Shown piece by piece: positions 15,170 to 53,167 of a DNA stretch of 64,000 nt. Every line of letters starts with the position of its first letter. Position 1 is the stretch's first letter. The stretch spans positions 13,178 to 77,177 of the forward strand of contig CAKOLH010000001.1 in the NCBI GenBank assembly GCA_934096105.1. The letters run 5' to 3'. Origin of the DNA: an uncultured Bacilli bacterium (GTDB taxonomy: Bacteria; Bacillota_I; Bacilli_A; RF39; UBA660). Position numbers and translations under genes: made by a program. The notes under the pieces were generated by a model. The model was not told where the DNA came from. It was given only the letters and a program-made list of their open reading frames with translations, and did not search any database.

Positions 15170-15198
15170 TTGCTTTTTTATTAAATTTATCATATAAT
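15170..15198 (+). promoter_or_regulatory. Sigma-A-type promoter of the antisense (antitoxin-like) RNA, locus 1
   Basis: TTGCTT, 17 nt spacer, TATAAT. Confidence 0.6.
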
Positions 15199-15204
15199 GT
15201 ATAT

Positions 15205-15309
15205 GAAAAGAGAAATTAGTCATAATAAAAATGGCTAACACCTATTTGGTAAGGTGTTCTCTTCAAACTATAGTTATCGGAGCAACCCCCTAAGGTGCCC
15301 CGATTTTTA
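15205..15309 (+). ncRNA. Candidate type I antitoxin antisense RNA, locus 1
   Basis: Lies downstream of the TTGCTT/TATAAT promoter. Ends in a GC-rich hairpin atcggagcaaccccctaaggtgccccgat plus a T run. Convergent with, and overlapping, the 3' UTR of the toxin mRNA. Confidence 0.55.
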
Positions 15310-15310
15310 T

Positions 15311-15388
15311 CTATTTTCTATGGCTACCTAGCACTATTATTGCTATGGTAACAAGAATAGTTAGAGCATATGCTATAACTAATTCCAT
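15311..15388 (-). CDS. Candidate type I toxin, 25 aa hydrophobic peptide MELVIAYALTILVTIAIIVLGSHRK
   Basis: ATG preceded by SD gggggaggagg. Single TM helix with a basic C-terminus. Near-identical paralog at 36468..36545. Confidence 0.6.
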   Translation of the reverse strand: MELVIAYALTILVTIAIIVLGSHRK

Positions 15389-15391
15389 CTA

Positions 15392-15436
15392 CTAATAACC
15401 TCCTCCCCCTAAGGTTAAGAAATTACTTTCTATCAT
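15392..15436 (-). CDS. Upstream mini-ORF (MIESNFLTLGGGGY) that spans the toxin SD
   Basis: Has its own SD (ggaaggagaggtg). Ends TAG TAG immediately before the toxin ATG. Translation is unproven. Confidence 0.35.
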   Translation of the reverse strand: MIESNFLTLGGGGY

Positions 15437-15510
15437 AAAATCACCTCTCCTTCCAAAGTAAATATACCCTAGAAAAAGAAGAGAACACCATAAGTATTAA
15501 CCACGCCAAC

Positions 15511-15540
15511 ATTATATACTAGTTTAAACATTATAGTCAA
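15511..15540 (-). promoter_or_regulatory. Sigma-A-type promoter of the toxin mRNA, locus 1
   Basis: On the minus strand: TTGACT, 18 nt spacer, TATAAT. The locus 3 promoter and leader (gttggcgtggttaatacttatggtgttctc) are nearly identical. Confidence 0.6.
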
Positions 15541-15595
15541 GATAATATGACTATTTTTTAATTATTTTTATAATATAAATATCTGTTATATTTTT

Positions 15596-15700
15596 TTGTA
15601 TATAGTCATGGCTTATATATGATAGATGCTGCTGGTATATTGTTATTAGACTACAGGCTAATAACAACACTGAAAGACTTATAAAATAAGGCTTGAAGTG
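15596..15700 (+). repeat. Interspersed structured repeat, copy B
   Basis: ttgtatatagtcatggcttatatatgatagatg..., then hairpin ttgttattag-actacagg-ctaataacaa, then hairpin cactgaaag-...-cttgaagtg. Confidence 0.85.
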
Positions 15701-19748: not shown

Positions 19749-19824
19749 TGGTGCCCCGTTGGAGATTCGAACTCCAGACCCTTTGATTAAAAGTCAAATG
19801 CTCTACCGACTGAGCTAACGGAGC
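19749..19824 (-). tRNA. tRNA-Lys (anticodon TTT)
   Basis: Cloverleaf read by eye. Anticodon loop CTTTTAA, TPsiC arm GGAGTTCGAATCTCC, encoded 3' CCA. Confidence 0.9.
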
Positions 19825-19835
19825 AAAAAATTGAT

Positions 19836-19910
19836 TGGTTGCCTCGGCAAGATTCGAACTTACGAATGCCACAGTCAAAGTGTGGTGCCTTACCGCTTGG
19901 CTACGAGGCA
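19836..19910 (-). tRNA. tRNA-Gln (anticodon TTG)
   Basis: Anticodon stem-loop CCACA-CTTTGAC-TGTGG. Encoded CCA. Confidence 0.88.
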
Positions 19911-19919
19911 ATAATCAAG

Positions 19920-20003
19920 TGGTGGAGGGACATGGATTTGAACCATGGAACCCGAAGGAACAGATTTACAGTCTGCCGCGTTTGACCACTTCGCTATCCC
20001 TCC
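19920..20003 (-). tRNA. tRNA-Tyr (anticodon GTA), long variable arm
   Basis: Anticodon loop CTGTAAA, long extra arm, acceptor GGAGGGA/TCCCTCC, encoded CCA. Confidence 0.88.
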
Positions 20004-20011
20004 AAAAAAAA

Positions 20012-20087
<76 letters not shown>

Positions 20088-20096
20088 ATAAATAAA

Positions 20097-20173
20097 TGGT
20101 GGGCGATATAGGACTCGAACCTATGACCCCTTGCTTGTAAGGCAAGTGCTCTAACCAACTGAGCTAATCGCCC
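20097..20173 (-). tRNA. tRNA-Val (anticodon TAC)
   Basis: Anticodon loop CTTACAA, acceptor GGGCGAT/ATCGCCC, encoded CCA. Confidence 0.9.
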
Positions 20174-36337: not shown

Positions 36338-36365
36338 TTGACTATTACTTAAACTAGCATATAAT
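36338..36365 (+). promoter_or_regulatory. Sigma-A-type promoter of the toxin mRNA, locus 2
   Basis: TTGACT, 16 nt spacer, TATAAT. Confidence 0.55.
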
Positions 36366-36432
36366 GCTGGTTTTAATTAGTACCTATGGATATTTTTTTG
36401 ATTTTCTATTATCAGAAGAAAGGAGTAATGAC

Positions 36433-36477
36433 ATGCTGAAAAAACTATCTGTAAAGAGGGTTAGTAAATGGAATTAG
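36433..36477 (+). CDS. Upstream mini-ORF MLKKLSVKRVSKWN overlapping the toxin start
   Basis: SD aaaggag. Overlaps the toxin SD and ATG out of frame. The N-terminus is conserved in locus 3. Confidence 0.35.
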   Translation: MLKKLSVKRVSKWN

Positions 36478-36545
36478 TTATAGCGTATGCTTTAACTATT
36501 CTTGTTACCATAGCAGTAATAGTGCTAGGTAGCCATAGAAAATAG
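36468..36545 (+). CDS. Candidate type I toxin, 25 aa: MELVIAYALTILVTIAVIVLGSHRK
   Basis: Differs by one residue from the peptide at 15311..15388. Not in the ORF track because of its size. Confidence 0.6.
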   Translation: MELVIAYALTILVTIAVIVLGSHRK

Positions 36546-36548
36546 ATT

Positions 36549-36652
36549 AAAAAAATCAGAGCGCCTCAGTGGGTCGTTCTGATAACTTAAGTTTGAAGAG
36601 AACACCTCGCAAATAGATGTTAGCCATTTTATTATGGCTAATTTCTCCTTCT
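36549..36652 (-). ncRNA. Candidate antitoxin antisense RNA, locus 2
   Basis: Minus-strand promoter TTGCAT, 17 nt spacer, TATAAT (36659-36687). Terminator atcagaacgacccactgaggcgctctgat plus T7, ending next to the toxin stop. Confidence 0.55.
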
Positions 36653-36658
36653 GTATAC

Positions 36659-36687
36659 ATTATATGTTATTTTAATAAAAAATGCAA
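36659..36687 (-). promoter_or_regulatory. Promoter of the locus 2 antisense RNA
   Basis: TTGCAT, 17 nt spacer, TATAAT on the minus strand. Confidence 0.55.
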
Positions 36688-36931: not shown

Positions 36932-37006
36932 GTGGAATTAGTTCTTGCTTTTGCATGGACTACTCTAATTGTACTGTTTTTAATAGACAGTTGCAATCGT
37001 AGATAG
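36932..37006 (+). CDS. Candidate type I toxin paralog, 24 aa (GTG start): MELVLAFAWTTLIVLFLIDSCNRR
   Basis: Homologous frame and MELV N-terminus as in loci 1 and 2. SD aaggggg. The GTG start may mean weaker expression or decay. Confidence 0.45.
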   Translation: MELVLAFAWTTLIVLFLIDSCNRR

Positions 37007-37140: not shown

Positions 37141-37272
37141 TAATATTTACAAATTATAGACTACTTGGAGGCTATAATTTGCCAAGAAAGACTTTGGCTT
37201 TCTTGGAAAGGAAAAGTATTGATATAATTATAGTTTTATTGTATAATTTTATTATGATAGGAGGATTTGAAT

Positions 37273-38355
37273 ATGATACTTAGAAGGCCTTATGCTTTTT
37301 TAATAAAACATTTTAGATTAATACATTTAATATTATTTACTCTACTGGCAATTATTACATATAATGCTAGTACAGTACTTAATTTCTTTAAAGACTATAT
37401 AATCAATAATGGAAATATGGAGATATTATCTTCTAATTATATTAATGTATTTATATATATTGCTCCAATTATTATTATTGGTTTATCTATTTTGATATTT
37501 TATCTTATGAAATATAAAGATAAACCTAGGTTATATTATATTATTTTAATTATAGTTAGTATACTTTGTACGGGAGTATATACTTATTTATATTTAAATA
37601 TTAGGTCTTTAGAAACTACTACTGTTAGTGCTAGAATAATTAGATTATATAGAGATATAGCAAGGTCTAATTTTTATGTATTATTTGTTATGTGTATACC
37701 TACTTTAATAAGAGGACTTGGATTTGATATTAAGAAGTTTAATTTTAGTAAGGATTTAAAAGAATTAAATCTAAGTGAAGAAGATGGTGCTGAAGTAGAA
37801 GTTAGTATTGATGTATCTAGTAATGGTCTAAAGAGAACTGGTAGAAGAACTCTTAGAGAACTTAAGTATTATTATGTAGAAAATAAATTTTTTATTAATA
37901 TAATTCTTGGTACTTTAATACTTATTTTAATTATGGTATTTCCTTTTAATAAATATGTTGTTAATAGAAATTTAAAAGAAGGTGAAGTACTTGGTACTAG
38001 TGCATTTAATATAAAGGTTACTGATAGTTATCTGACTGATAGAAAGAGAATTAGTAAAGATAATAGTTATGTAATACTTAAAGTTAGTGTAATTGGTAAG
38101 GTAAATAAATATTCTTTGGATTTAGACCATTTTGTTTTAGAGGGTAAGAATAATAAATATGTTCCAAGTCAGAAGTTTTATTTATATTTTAATGATATTG
38201 GAACAGGATATAGAAATAATATATTAGATACTACTAGTTATAAAGATTATATTTTAGTATTTAATATAAATAATATTGATAAAGATTCTAACTTTATATT
38301 TAGGTATGTAGATAATGATAGGGGTATTAAATTATCTCCTGAAGTAATTTATTAA
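37273..38355 (+). CDS. Polytopic membrane protein with a C-terminal extracytoplasmic beta-sandwich-like (DUF4352-like) region
   Basis: Five hydrophobic helices, then NIKVTDSYL...YVILKVSVIGK...HFVLEGKNNKY. RBS aggagga, ATG at 37273. Confidence 0.5.
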   Translation: MILRRPYAFLIKHFRLIHLILFTLLAIITYNASTVLNFFKDYIINNGNMEILSSNYINVFIYIAPIIIIGLSILIFYLMKYKDKPRLYYIILIIVSILCTGVYTYLYLNIRSLETTTVSARIIRLYRDIARSNFYVLFVMCIPTLIRGLGFDIKKFNFSKDLKELNLSEEDGAEVEVSIDVSSNGLKRTGRRTLRELKYYYVENKFFINIILGTLILILIMVFPFNKYVVNRNLKEGEVLGTSAFNIKVTDSYLTDRKRISKDNSYVILKVSVIGKVNKYSLDLDHFVLEGKNNKYVPSQKFYLYFNDIGTGYRNNILDTTSYKDYILVFNINNIDKDSNFIFRYVDNDRGIKLSPEVIY

Positions 38356-38366
38356 ATTGGTTTATA

Positions 38367-38398
38367 AAAATATAACTTTTGAGGTTATATTTTTTTTT
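38367..38398 (+). terminator. Rho-independent terminator
   Basis: aaatataac-ttttgagg-ttatatt followed by T9. Confidence 0.6.
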
Positions 38399-38459
38399 GG
38401 CTATAAATAATCTATTTTGGTTATAAATTAATAATTTTTGGTAATAATTGAATAATTTT
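38395..38459 (+). promoter_or_regulatory. Three tandem direct repeats spaced 20-21 bp apart, upstream of the bacteriocin-export operon
   Basis: TTTTGGCTATAAATAAT / TTTTGGTTATAAATTAAT / TTTTGGTAATAATTGAAT, starting at about 38395, 38415 and 38436. Confidence 0.5.
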
Positions 38460-38526
38460 AAAGAAATTTTCAAAATTATGGCAAAATCGTATATTAATTC
38501 TTGTATATAAGTATGAAGGGAGTAAA

Positions 38527-40587
38527 ATGAAGAAAGATTTAATTGTACTACAAGAAGGAAATAAGGATTGCGGAGCAGCCTCTCTTTTATCTATCATTCG
38601 TTATTATGGAGGTGATATTTCTTTAGATAGATTAACAGAGATGACTAAAACAACAAAAGAAGGGACTAATTTTTATAATTTAAGTGAGGCATCATCTAAA
38701 CTAGGACTAATGGCTAAATCATATAAGGCAAGTGATGTTAGTCAAATAAAGGAGGTTAAATGTCCATATATTGTTCAGCTTAATAATAAGAATTATATGC
38801 ATTTTGCTGTTATATATAAATTATATGAAGATAAGGTATTAATGATGGATCCTGCAGTAGGTAAAGTTACAATGGATATGTTTGATTTTACTAATATGTG
38901 GACAGGCTATTTAATGCTTTTTGAAAAAGTAAAACCTATTTCAGTAATCACTAGTGATAAAAAATTAATGAAGATGATATGGCTAGTATTATTTAATAAT
39001 AAAGGTATTATTGTATTCTTAACTATATTGTCATTATTAATTACTTTATATTCTATAGGAACATCTTTTTATTCACAAATTATTTTTGATAAGATAATAA
39101 ATACTGAAGTAAATAATTTAATTATAATTACGATATTCTTTTCTATCTTATATATACTTAAAAATATTAGTAATTATGTTAGAAATTACTTAATTATTTA
39201 TTTAAATCAAAAAATAGATATTAGTATCATTCTTAGTACATTTAGTAATATTATTTTACTTCCCTTCACATTTTATCAAGGAAAGACTTCGGGTGAAGTA
39301 TTATCTAGAATTAATGATTTATCACACTTTAAAATATTTATATCTAGAATTATAGTTACTATATTTTTAGATATTATAGTATTTATTACATCTTTTATTA
39401 TTATATATTTTATTAAGAGAGAATTTATTATGTTAATTATTATTATGCTTATAGTATATATATTAATTATACTAATATTTAATCCAATAATAAAAAGAAT
39501 TAATATTAAAAATCAGATGAATAATGAACTAGTTAATAATGATATAATAGAGTCTACTAAATCATTTGAAACTATTAAAAATCTTAATATTCAAGATAAT
39601 ATTATATTAAAGTTTGAGAAGGATTATAATAAGTTAATTGCTACTTCATATTATGGTGAGAAAATTAATAATATTCTTTTATTACTTAAAAGTTTACTTG
39701 GTGATTTAGGATTATTAGTACTTAATTTTATTTGTTTTAGATTTATTATGAAGAATAATTTAACTATGGGTAATTATATGACTATAACACTACTATTTAA
39801 TTATATATTATCACCAATTGATAATTTTATATCTTTACTTAATGAGTATCATTTTGTTAAGAATAGCATTAGAAGAGTAAATGATTTACTTGATGCGGAC
39901 AAAGAAATTATTGCAGATAATAAACTAGAATTAAATGGTAATATTGAAGTTAGAAATTTATCTTTTACTTTTAATAATAAATATTATCCTCTTAATAATG
40001 TTAATTTATCTATTAAGAATGGAGAAAGAGTACTTATACTTGGTGAATCTGGTATTGGTAAGTCCACTTTATTAAGATTAATTTATAAGTATTATGATAT
40101 AGATAGGGGACAAATATTTATTAATGGTTATGATATTAATGATTATACTTTAGCGGATATAAGAAAGAACATAACATATATTTCACAAAATGAAATGTTA
40201 TATACAGATAGTATTAGAAATAATATTATACTTGATAGAAATATTTCAGAGAATGATTTTTTGAATGTATGTAAAATGACTTATGTAGATGAGATTATTA
40301 AAGATAATATATTAGGTTATGATTATATTACCGAAGAGAATGGTAGTAATCTTTCAGGAGGTCAAAGACAAAGAATAATACTAGCCCGAGGTCTTTTAAA
40401 AAATAGTAAAATAATAATGATAGATGAAGGATTGAGTCAAATTGATATTAAGTTAGAGAGAATTATTTTAGAAAATTTATTTTGGACATATCAAGATAAA
40501 ACTTTTGTAGTGGTATCACATAGAGAGAATAATACTGATTTATATGATAAAGTTATTAGACTAAGAGGTAAAAATAATGATAGATAG
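38527..40587 (+). CDS. Bacteriocin-processing ABC transporter with an N-terminal C39 cysteine peptidase domain
   Basis: C39 motif QEGNKDCGAASLLSI with downstream His (YMHFAVIY). Six TM helices. Walker A GESGIGKST, signature LSGGQRQR, Walker B IIMIDEG. Confidence 0.9.
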   Translation: MKKDLIVLQEGNKDCGAASLLSIIRYYGGDISLDRLTEMTKTTKEGTNFYNLSEASSKLGLMAKSYKASDVSQIKEVKCPYIVQLNNKNYMHFAVIYKLYEDKVLMMDPAVGKVTMDMFDFTNMWTGYLMLFEKVKPISVITSDKKLMKMIWLVLFNNKGIIVFLTILSLLITLYSIGTSFYSQIIFDKIINTEVNNLIIITIFFSILYILKNISNYVRNYLIIYLNQKIDISIILSTFSNIILLPFTFYQGKTSGEVLSRINDLSHFKIFISRIIVTIFLDIIVFITSFIIIYFIKREFIMLIIIMLIVYILIILIFNPIIKRINIKNQMNNELVNNDIIESTKSFETIKNLNIQDNIILKFEKDYNKLIATSYYGEKINNILLLLKSLLGDLGLLVLNFICFRFIMKNNLTMGNYMTITLLFNYILSPIDNFISLLNEYHFVKNSIRRVNDLLDADKEIIADNKLELNGNIEVRNLSFTFNNKYYPLNNVNLSIKNGERVLILGESGIGKSTLLRLIYKYYDIDRGQIFINGYDINDYTLADIRKNITYISQNEMLYTDSIRNNIILDRNISENDFLNVCKMTYVDEIIKDNILGYDYITEENGSNLSGGQRQRIILARGLLKNSKIIMIDEGLSQIDIKLERIILENLFWTYQDKTFVVVSHRENNTDLYDKVIRLRGKNNDR

Positions 40588-44353: not shown

Positions 44354-44430
44354 TGGGACGGAATGTGGGAATCGAACCCACGAATAATGGAACCACAATC
44401 CACCGTGTTAACCACTTCACCAATTCCGCC
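44354..44430 (-). tRNA. tRNA-His (anticodon GTG) with G-1
   Basis: Anticodon loop TTGTGGT. An extra 5' G pairs with C73. Encoded CCA. Terminator hairpin aactagctcgttaagagttagtttttt lies downstream. Confidence 0.88.
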
Positions 44431-52616: not shown

Positions 52617-52637
52617 TTAGTGTAGGAGGTGAAAATA

Positions 52638-52847
52638 ATGAGTAACAATACAAATAGTAAGATGGTAGTTCCAGGAGCTAAACAAGCTATCGAAAGAATG
52701 AAATATGAAATAGCTAACGAATTTGGTGTTAATTTAGGACCAGATACAACTTCAAGAGCTAATGGATCAGTTGGTGGAGAAATCACTAAGAGATTAGTTC
52801 AATTAGGACAAAACCAAATCAGTGGTTCAAATTACCAAGCTAAATAG
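52638..52847 (+). CDS. Small acid-soluble spore protein, alpha/beta type
   Basis: [47 protein letters not shown] ggaggtg. Confidence 0.92.
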
Positions 52848-52935
52848 TTAATTTTAAGTATAAAAAAAGTCTCATGATATAGATGAGGCTTTTATTTTTT
52901 TATTGTTTATTCTTTTTGGTGTAAAGTTAGGATTA

Positions 52936-53042
52936 AAAAAATAAAAAGAGACTGACCCCCTAAGGAACAGTCTCCCAAAAAGAATAAAAAGGGGTTGGCT
53001 AGTGTGATACTAGCACCAATTCGCCTAATATCGAACTGGTGA
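52936..53042 (-). ncRNA. Candidate stand-alone small RNA
   Basis: Minus-strand promoter TTGACA, 17 nt spacer, TATTAT (53048-53076). Hairpins caccagttcg/cgaattggtg and ctagt/actag. C-rich single-stranded CCAACCCC. Terminator gagactgttccttagggggtcagtctc plus a T run. No ORF. Confidence 0.45.
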
Positions 53043-53167
53043 TTAATATAATAAACGAAGTTGGGTATTTTGTCAACCCTAAAATTAAAAAAAATAAAAA
53101 AATATTTTAAATATTGTTATTATTAAAAAAATATGGTATTATTTTATTAGAAATAGAGGAGTTAAAT

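Follow-up and report, generated by a model that had tools for sequence, protein, structure and literature searches.

A predicted type I toxin–antitoxin family with a leader open reading frame and a 3'-end antisense RNA in uncultured gut Bacilli

Toxin–antitoxin (TA) systems of type I are hard to find, since their toxins are tiny and their antitoxins are RNA, and in most clostridial species none of the known type I toxins turned up in homology searches (2019 review, PMC6563280). In bsrG/SR4, from the SPβ prophage of Bacillus subtilis, nucleotides (nt) 1-35 of the toxin mRNA pair with nt 232-262 near its 3' end to form helix P1, and the antitoxin SR4 is complementary to the bsrG mRNA's 3' end, with pairing that starts at the SR4 terminator loop (PMC3834814). 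As a result of SR4 binding, the bsrG 5' arm becomes single-stranded, the helix over the Shine–Dalgarno (SD) sequence lengthens from 4 bp to 8, and the next step is RNase III-dependent decay (PMC3834814). We analysed a 64,000-nt stretch of contig CAKOLH010000001.1 from an uncultured Bacilli bacterium (the window, numbered from its first letter), in which an original prediction had read the unannotated interval 15170-15540 as a type I TA-like module. This interval is quite probably one copy of a chromosomal type I TA module, here called module A, and it represents a new type I family whose predicted control combines designs known separately from hok/Sok and bsrG/SR4.

By analogy in geometry and in probable refolding, bsrG/SR4 is the closest mechanistic precedent. 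As in that system, the genes of module A are convergent and the predicted antisense RNA is complementary to the toxin mRNA at its 3' end, about 30 nt of the mRNA 5' end lie in a long helix with the 3' region, the SD is sequestered, and a hairpin at the stop codon has a loop complementary to the antitoxin terminator loop, the loop contact itself being presumed here. The P1-like 5'-3' helix, with its 3' arm in the antisense target, is predicted and covaries in the new family, and is absent in one class of leaders (B-type). The two systems share no sequence similarity, and no BsrG or SR4 homology was found in Pfam, NCBIfam or Rfam at permissive thresholds. Furthermore, the toxin has 24-25 amino acids (aa) here against 38 in bsrG, and the antisense RNA has about 105 nt against about 180. 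The predicted refolding here targets the SD of a leader open reading frame (ORF) and not the toxin SD, whereas bsrG has no leader ORF. Finally, uncultured gut Bacilli have the new module on the chromosome and in several copies, rather than on a prophage.

The hok/mok/Sok system (plasmid R1 and enterobacterial chromosomes) also has a leader ORF, mok, whose translation hok needs. Further features in common with module A are the 5'-3' fold-back (tac/fbi), through which the full-length hok mRNA stays inert, a membrane toxin of small size, and chromosomal loci in multiple copies, many of them decayed. However, Sok is made from the 5' end and targets the mok initiation region, whereas the antisense here covers the 3' untranslated region (UTR) with the fbi-equivalent arm. 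Hok has about 50 aa and a Pfam family (Hok/Gef), while the peptides here matched no Pfam-A or NCBIfam family and the Rfam scan returned no Sok. The host of hok is Gram-negative, and the frame and overlap of mok are fixed, whereas the leader-ORF frame is variable here. The original prediction had likened the fold-back to that of hok mRNA and the mini-ORF to mok/hok coupling, and had the antisense compete with the 5' leader for the same 3' site. The fold-back and the shared sequence are indeed conserved, but for such competition bsrG/SR4 is the better precedent, as Sok acts at the 5' end; the mok/hok comparison stands as an analogous arrangement, but not for the leader frame and stop position, which vary among subtypes.

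The par locus (fst RNA I/RNA II, Fst/Ldr superfamily) resembles module A in its Gram-positive host, its convergent transcripts, and a terminator-loop interaction that starts pairing. It also has a second, non-contiguous complementarity at the toxin initiation region, comparable to an 11-nt repeat described below, a 5' structure that sequesters the SD, and a single-helix toxin with a charged tail. Unlike par, the two RNAs here have no shared bidirectional terminator, a leader ORF is present, and the peptides have no Pfam-A or NCBIfam match at E up to 10 (Fst_toxin included). DRa/DRb repeats do not occur at the 5' ends here; the 5' leader is identical to the antisense and not complementary to it, and no 5' complementarity was found. 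In SprA1/SprA1AS of Staphylococcus aureus, whose toxin is a short membrane peptide, a cis-encoded antisense RNA, SprA1AS, overlaps the toxin mRNA at its 3' end and has been proposed also to block the toxin ribosome-binding site via a non-overlapping region; this trans pairing is made by the antisense 5' domain, whereas the candidate here is the 3' terminator loop. To our knowledge, SprA1/SprA1AS has no leader ORF and no described 5'-3' helix, and it differs from module A in having no sequence similarity to it. Since neither the modules (Rfam) nor the peptides (Pfam, NCBIfam) gave a family match, the locus falls outside the bsrG, hok and Fst families.

Every element of the original prediction was located in the sequence, with minor coordinate corrections. 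The parts of module A are the following (HP, hairpin; MFE, minimum free energy).

15540..15511, minus strand: toxin mRNA promoter, TTGACT-18-TATAAT, 11/12 consensus matches in the promoter scan
15480..15504, minus strand: 5' arm of the long-distance 5'-3' helix, holding the 12-mer GGUGUUCUCUUC, in the MFE and centroid structures
15446..15479, minus strand: 15-bp 5' hairpin, CUUCUUUUUCU paired with the leader-ORF SD GGAAGGAGA, in the MFE and centroid structures
15454..15444, minus strand: leader-ORF SD, GGAAGGAGAGG, a strong one
15436..15392, minus strand: leader ORF (upstream ORF) of 14 codons, MIESNFLTLGGGGY, plus TAG (ATG 15436..15434, TAG 15394..15392)
15394..15427, minus strand: hairpin inside the leader ORF, whose 5' arm (codons 4-7) pairs with the toxin SD GGAGGAGG
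15406..15399, minus strand: toxin SD, GGAGGAGG
15388..15311, minus strand: toxin ORF of 25 aa, MELVIAYALTILVTIAIIVLGSHRK, stop codon 15311-15313
15231..15262, minus strand: 3' arm of the long-distance 5'-3' helix, AGAGAACACC, a 7-nt bulge and AUAGGUGUUAGCCAU, overlapping HP2 and lying wholly inside the antisense-complementary region
15170-15175 (-35) and 15193-15198 (-10), plus strand: antisense promoter, TTGCTT-17-TATAAT, read from the sequence
15205..15310, plus strand: predicted antisense (antitoxin) RNA, about 105 nt, three hairpins, fold z = -3.7
15218-15236, plus strand: HP1, from the fold
15237-15258, plus strand: HP2, from the fold
15276..15304, plus strand: HP3, GC-rich antisense terminator hairpin, with the T-run TTTTT at 15304-15308; all types keep hairpin and T-run

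On the minus strand, the promoter is nearly invariant throughout the family, and transcription would start at about 15505-15507 to give a predicted toxin mRNA of about 285 nt (15505..15222 was used for folding). The leader ORF has its own SD and crosses the toxin SD, as had been proposed, and a second TAG (15391..15389) abuts the toxin ATG at 15388, so that both TAGs and the toxin ATG share the leader frame. The toxin ORF is small (<60 aa), hydrophobic and of the membrane type, and its product is a single hydrophobic helix with a basic C-terminus. The terminator scan showed HP2 and a U-run to be terminator-like at 15258..15237 on the minus strand, and this is likely the toxin mRNA terminator. 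Just upstream of the toxin promoter, at window positions 15542-15597, we also observed an AT-rich tandem direct repeat (28 nt, 75% identity). A block AAAAAATAGTCA upstream of the -35 hexamer is kept in all modules and may be an UP element or an operator.

On the plus strand, the convergent layout of the original prediction is present, and the antisense promoter is kept in every subtype as TTG(C/A)(T/A)T-17-TATAAT, together with HP1, HP2, the GC-rich HP3 with its C5 loop, and the T-run. This T-run lies 3-7 nt away from the toxin stop codon, which places the terminator at the toxin stop as claimed. The HP3 hairpin also forms in the toxin mRNA directly past the toxin stop, where the mRNA would read through to its separate terminator. 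About 85 nt of the toxin mRNA 3' UTR are complementary to the predicted antisense RNA, and the target region takes in the whole 3' arm of the 5'-3' helix. The antisense gene sits at the 3' end of the mRNA, and it has the same sequence as the 5' leader, not its complement: the 12-mer already seen in both extends to about 27 nt of near-identical sequence, maintained with compensatory changes. We infer that both strands are transcribed, and the plus strand would carry an antisense gene with its own promoter and terminator whose RNA could pair with the toxin mRNA.

The perfect inverted 12-mers that had been reported to join the 5' leader to the 3' UTR (15253-15264 and 15478-15489) are above chance, with 4 matches in the window where 0.05 were expected; the two extra matches belong to paralogous modules. 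The original prediction missed that GGUGUUCUCUUC is only the core of a 25-bp 5'-3' helix, in which 15504..15480 pairs with 15262..15253 and 15245..15231, with one 7-nt bulge, to join the two mRNA ends. The toxin mRNA folds at -102.8 kcal/mol, while its dinucleotide shuffles average -65.1 (z = -7.95). The 5'-3' helix has an ensemble expectation of 25.5 bp in module A, and the unpaired probability of the toxin SD in the ensemble fold is 0.01.

The two paralogues in the window are located as follows.

36338..36687, plus strand: module B, toxin 36468-36545, MELVIAYALTILVTIAVIVLGSHRK; leader ATG 36433; a leader type without the 5'-3' helix
36800..37140, plus strand: module C, toxin 36932-37006 with a GTG start, MELVLAFAWTTLIVLFLIDSCNRR; 5'-3' helix kept

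Module A itself was found at the same site, with 94-100% identity, in other strains (human-gut metagenome contigs). A 24-nt pattern around the toxin start retrieved six true copies in five GTDB species representatives, two in Clostridium sp. CAG:302 and the rest in two "uncultured Bacilli" and two "uncultured Tenericutes" metagenome-assembled genomes (MAGs); a further match in a gammaproteobacterial MAG (L011) was rejected, the pattern occurring there by chance and outside any module. An independent pattern, from the antisense hairpin region, gave 98 stretches in the human-gut metagenome scan, many of which are tandem arrays of 2-3 units about 480 nt apart. A search with nhmmer returned 150 matches, 104 of them full-length and 86 unique, and the locus is conserved as a unit, the whole of it recurring in more than 100 loci. 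All matches in the collection scans lie in human-gut contigs related to Clostridium sp. CAG:302. The antisense-region pattern had 0 matches in viral contigs, and blastn in distant mode gave only short chance matches in the plasmid and phage collections, so the module is not evidently plasmid- or phage-borne.

We then tested the predicted helices on an alignment of 78 distinct transcripts, with the structure taken from module A. As a result, 94.6% of the alignment cells were paired, against 53-61% with the partners slid by 1-3 columns, and 16 pairs were altered on both sides, a number that 1 of 500 shuffles reached (shuffle mean 10). The covariation score was 0.132, against at most 0.074 in the slid controls. 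In the 5' hairpin (helix 4), 97% of the cells were paired and 3 pairs were altered on both sides, with 30% of the cells G·U on this strand only; the leader-ORF hairpin (helix 5) had 6 pairs altered on both sides and HP3 (helix 7) had 4. The 5'-3' helix was compensated by CUCUUC/GAAGAG to CUCUCC/GGAGAG (U-A to C-G), by U·G to A-U in locus L097, and in locus L046 by a U inserted in the 5' arm together with a matching A inserted in the 3' arm, while GAAGAG to GGGGAG in locus L015 yields U·G pairs. It was predicted in all non-B leaders (23.6-27.6 expected bp).

The mismatches are strand-specific. G·U pairs on the toxin strand made up 15.7% in the 5'-3' helix and about 30% in the two SD hairpins, while pairs valid only on the opposite strand made up 1.2% and about 0%, respectively (overall 15.7-30% against 0.1-1.2% for the mRNA helices). 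In HP1, which covaries as well, the values were 0% on the toxin strand and 12.8% for pairs valid only on the opposite (antisense) strand. This argues for two structured RNAs, one per strand, and against an inverted repeat at the DNA level. The structural claims of the original prediction thus hold across the 78 transcripts, with covariation and strand-specific G·U pairs in support of the helices.

On this basis we tentatively propose a three-step RNA relay, in which the antitoxin would expel the 5' arm and thereby close the ribosome-binding site of the leader ORF, while only leader translation would open the toxin SD. The mRNA would be held by three locks: its first ~25 nt paired with the 3' UTR, so that both ends lie in one helix; the 15-bp 5' hairpin covering the leader-ORF SD; and the hairpin of leader-ORF codons covering the toxin SD. 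Since the toxin SD and the leader SD would both be locked, the toxin would be made only if ribosomes translate the leader ORF first, melting the toxin-SD hairpin and terminating at TAG TAG just ahead of the toxin ATG. The antisense would make its first contact at the fully complementary loop of HP3 and then zip along the 3' UTR to form a long duplex, a likely substrate of RNase III. In doing so it would expel the 5' arm of the same sequence, and the freed arm would refold onto the leader-ORF SD and tighten repression. When the 3' UTR was blocked in silico in an A-type mRNA, the unpaired probability of the leader SD indeed fell from 0.46 to 0.12, as the freed 5' arm lengthened the leader-SD hairpin.

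Several observations weigh against the type I reading or against parts of this relay. The antisense -35 hexamer matches the consensus at 3/6 positions only, which is why the promoter scan omitted the plus-strand promoter. The 3' end of the toxin mRNA is uncertain, HP2 being weak as a terminator (7 bp, 3 G-C). The alignment consists mostly of near-identical A-type rows and its structure was derived from one such row, which inflates the pairing statistics given above. B-type leaders, those of module B included, have no 5'-3' helix (1.5-7.5 expected bp), so the helix is not universal, and the in-silico effect of antisense binding on SD accessibility varies among subtypes. The leader ORF also varies outside the major group of modules in frame and stop, with 10-37 codons and in some cases the whole toxin ORF spanned, so termination-reinitiation coupling cannot hold for all subtypes. 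Finally, the string shared by the SD region and the HP3 loop is only 6-7 nt outside this strain and locus L046 (p = 0.05-0.16), and is clear in some subtypes only.

The antisense might instead act only via the 3' duplex and RNase III-dependent decay, as in txpA/RatA, with a 5'-3' helix that protects the ends from exonucleases and does not refold. Degradation-only action is an accepted mode in B. subtilis (PMC3834814), B-type leaders keep the antisense gene without the helix, and the inconsistency of the 3'-UTR blocking effect among subtypes would also be expected from it. However, in A-type modules the 5' arm, once freed, is predicted to lengthen the helix that covers the leader SD, and the ~27-nt near-identity of 5' arm and antisense is kept with compensatory changes, in the same arrangement that was proved to cause refolding in bsrG/SR4. 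We consider this alternative rather unlikely.

The relay also requires a translated leader ORF. The leader ATG is invariant in all 78 distinct sequences, every subtype has a leader SD near the Firmicute ideal, and the ORF crosses the toxin-SD hairpin without exception. Of the 86 unique modules, 67 have the 14-codon in-frame leader ORF whose stop abuts the toxin start, and an in-frame stop (TAG, TAA or TGA) lies at most 2 codons upstream of the toxin start in every subtype read. We infer that the leader ORF is regulatory and would open the toxin SD when it is translated; only in the main subtype is termination-reinitiation plausible. It is rather unlikely that the leader ORF is untranslated, in which case its SD and ATG would serve only as the structural partner of the 5' hairpin, as a STAB-SD-like stabiliser or as a standby site, with the toxin translated independently. 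The leader peptide sequence differs between subtypes, frame and stop position vary, and the C-type leader ORF overlaps the entire toxin ORF out of frame, all as such a role would allow. Against it stand the ATG, which is invariant although the surrounding leader differs, the constant position across the toxin SD hairpin with a stop no more than 2 codons from the toxin start, and the nearly full sequestration of the toxin SD that would persist without leader translation.

Changes in leader-ORF length and frame often come from changes in G-run length. The G-run at 15405-15415 and its equivalents in loci L021, L109, L054 and L064 read GGGG, GGGGG, GGGGGG and GGGGAGGAGG, each change shifting the leader frame and stop, and the G-run may be a slippage hotspot that tunes coupling. 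A read-through of TAG that would fuse the leader ORF to the toxin was considered and set aside, since translation table 11 gives long, regularly spaced ORFs and the double stop favours firm termination.

A second repeat, missed by the original prediction, links the antisense to the toxin initiation region. This exact 11-nt direct repeat, CCCCCTAAGGT on the plus strand, has one copy in the HP3 loop (15286-15296) and one in the toxin SD region (15405-15415), against 0.3 matches expected; the loop of the antisense terminator is thereby complementary to the region where toxin translation would start. We judged the match by a shared-substring test, since RNAduplex on the whole antisense and the whole 5' region gave meaningless long gapped duplexes (z near 0). 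The shared string measured 11 nt in this strain (p < 0.0005) and 9 nt in locus L046 (p = 0.0015). The C-rich HP3 loop may in addition pair directly with the toxin SD region, but since the match is weak outside some subtypes, we rank this route as a secondary hypothesis.

At window positions 52935-53045 on the minus strand, we also found an unannotated small-RNA-like stretch of about 110 nt with three hairpins (z = -4.4) and no Rfam family match. It is preceded on the minus strand by TTGACA (53071-53076) and, about 17 nt downstream of this hexamer, by a -10-like TATTAT. Its last hairpin, a terminator, carries UCCUUAGGGGG, which has one mismatch to the 11-mer of the module A toxin SD region and would be complementary to the antisense HP3 loop.

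The toxin ORF shows signs of coding and of decay. Fifteen distinct peptides were found (for example MESVVALAMIILITIVYIDNMIRRK, MDSVVSLITIVFLFVIYLDNRKHRK and MELVLAYAITVLILLAVISKNNHTK), and although the nucleotide sequences diverge by about 50%, every peptide has 24-25 aa, a hydrophobic core and a basic C-terminus. The polymorphisms common in the A type are either silent (A6) or conservative (V17L/I, S22N). Inactivation is frequent: MKLVLAFA* occurs in 13 copies, and MELVIAYALTI* and MELVIAYALTILVT* occur as well. Both CAG:302 copies (L013:7594-7680, FR887371, and L015:2480-2586, FR887368) have the same 1-nt deletion, GTTACCATA to GTTACATA, which cuts the toxin to 14 aa; gene conversion could have spread a real inactivation, or the deletion could be an artefact of assembly or of a homopolymer. 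A decayed copy (L012:235-538) has a frameshifted toxin and has lost HP3 and the antisense promoter, an orphan antisense gene (L017:7216-7381) has the toxin half replaced, and recombinant modules in L017 and L012 join a B-type leader to a C-type toxin. By analogy, nonsense and frameshift copies, an orphan antisense gene and recombinants form a pattern typical of chromosomal type I toxins.

Whole-library scans of the peptides against Pfam-A and NCBIfam (E up to 10) gave no relevant family, Rfam searches gave only noise both around module A (E up to 10) and around modules B and C (E up to 5), and a string search of the indexed literature did not find the peptides. The lack of homology to any proven toxin in these protein scans would suit a harmless small membrane protein under ordinary antisense control. 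Such a peptide would hardly explain three layers of translational silencing, tandem arrays with several copies, the many nonsense and frameshift copies, the orphan antisense gene or the recombination between modules, all of them typical of type I toxins, and we regard this explanation as improbable; the peptide is more probably the toxin of a TA pair. A non-coding repeat such as a miniature inverted-repeat transposable element, with the arms as terminal inverted repeats and accidental ORFs, would share the ~400-bp length, the multi-copy intergenic occurrence and the ~25-bp inverted repeat, but we rejected it as highly implausible, because the repeat is internal, with conservation running ~35-60 nt past each arm over both promoters, its mismatches are G·U-compatible on one strand only, ORF length, hydrophobicity and basic tail are retained through ~50% nucleotide divergence, and the leader ATG is invariant.

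The new family comprises more than 100 natural variants in human-gut metagenomes, in a lineage labelled Clostridium sp. CAG:302 or uncultured Bacilli or Tenericutes MAGs. They provide a ready mutational series: leaders with or without the 5'-3' helix, leader ORFs in three frames, recombinants and orphan antitoxins. Leader-peptide coupling is cited only for E. coli hok/Sok and ldrD/RdlD (PMC6562991), and the family could show whether it also operates in Firmicutes. It could likewise tell whether bsrG/SR4 is one case of a general design in which an antisense RNA induces long-range refolding. If true, the relay would merge the fold-back and leader-ORF logic of hok/mok with the 3'-antisense refolding of bsrG/SR4 in one family. 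Furthermore, the module is a model for annotating the ~300-nt "empty" intergenic regions of such genomes.

The genes next to the modules are ordinary chromosomal ones, which encode, for example, radical-SAM, HD and LysM proteins. Window positions 37267-40587, directly downstream of modules B and C, contain a 362-aa ORF without a Pfam match and a C39-peptidase ABC exporter of the bacteriocin type; no link of these genes to the modules was found, and other module copies have different neighbours. The only Rfam gathering-level matches in the window are a cluster of five tRNA genes and a single one, at 19752-20173 and 44357-44429 (minus strand), respectively. Finally, an ORF at 52620-52847 resembles, as judged by eye, an alpha/beta-type small acid-soluble spore protein, which suggests a spore-former, though the related MAGs are labelled 'Tenericutes' or 'Bacilli'.

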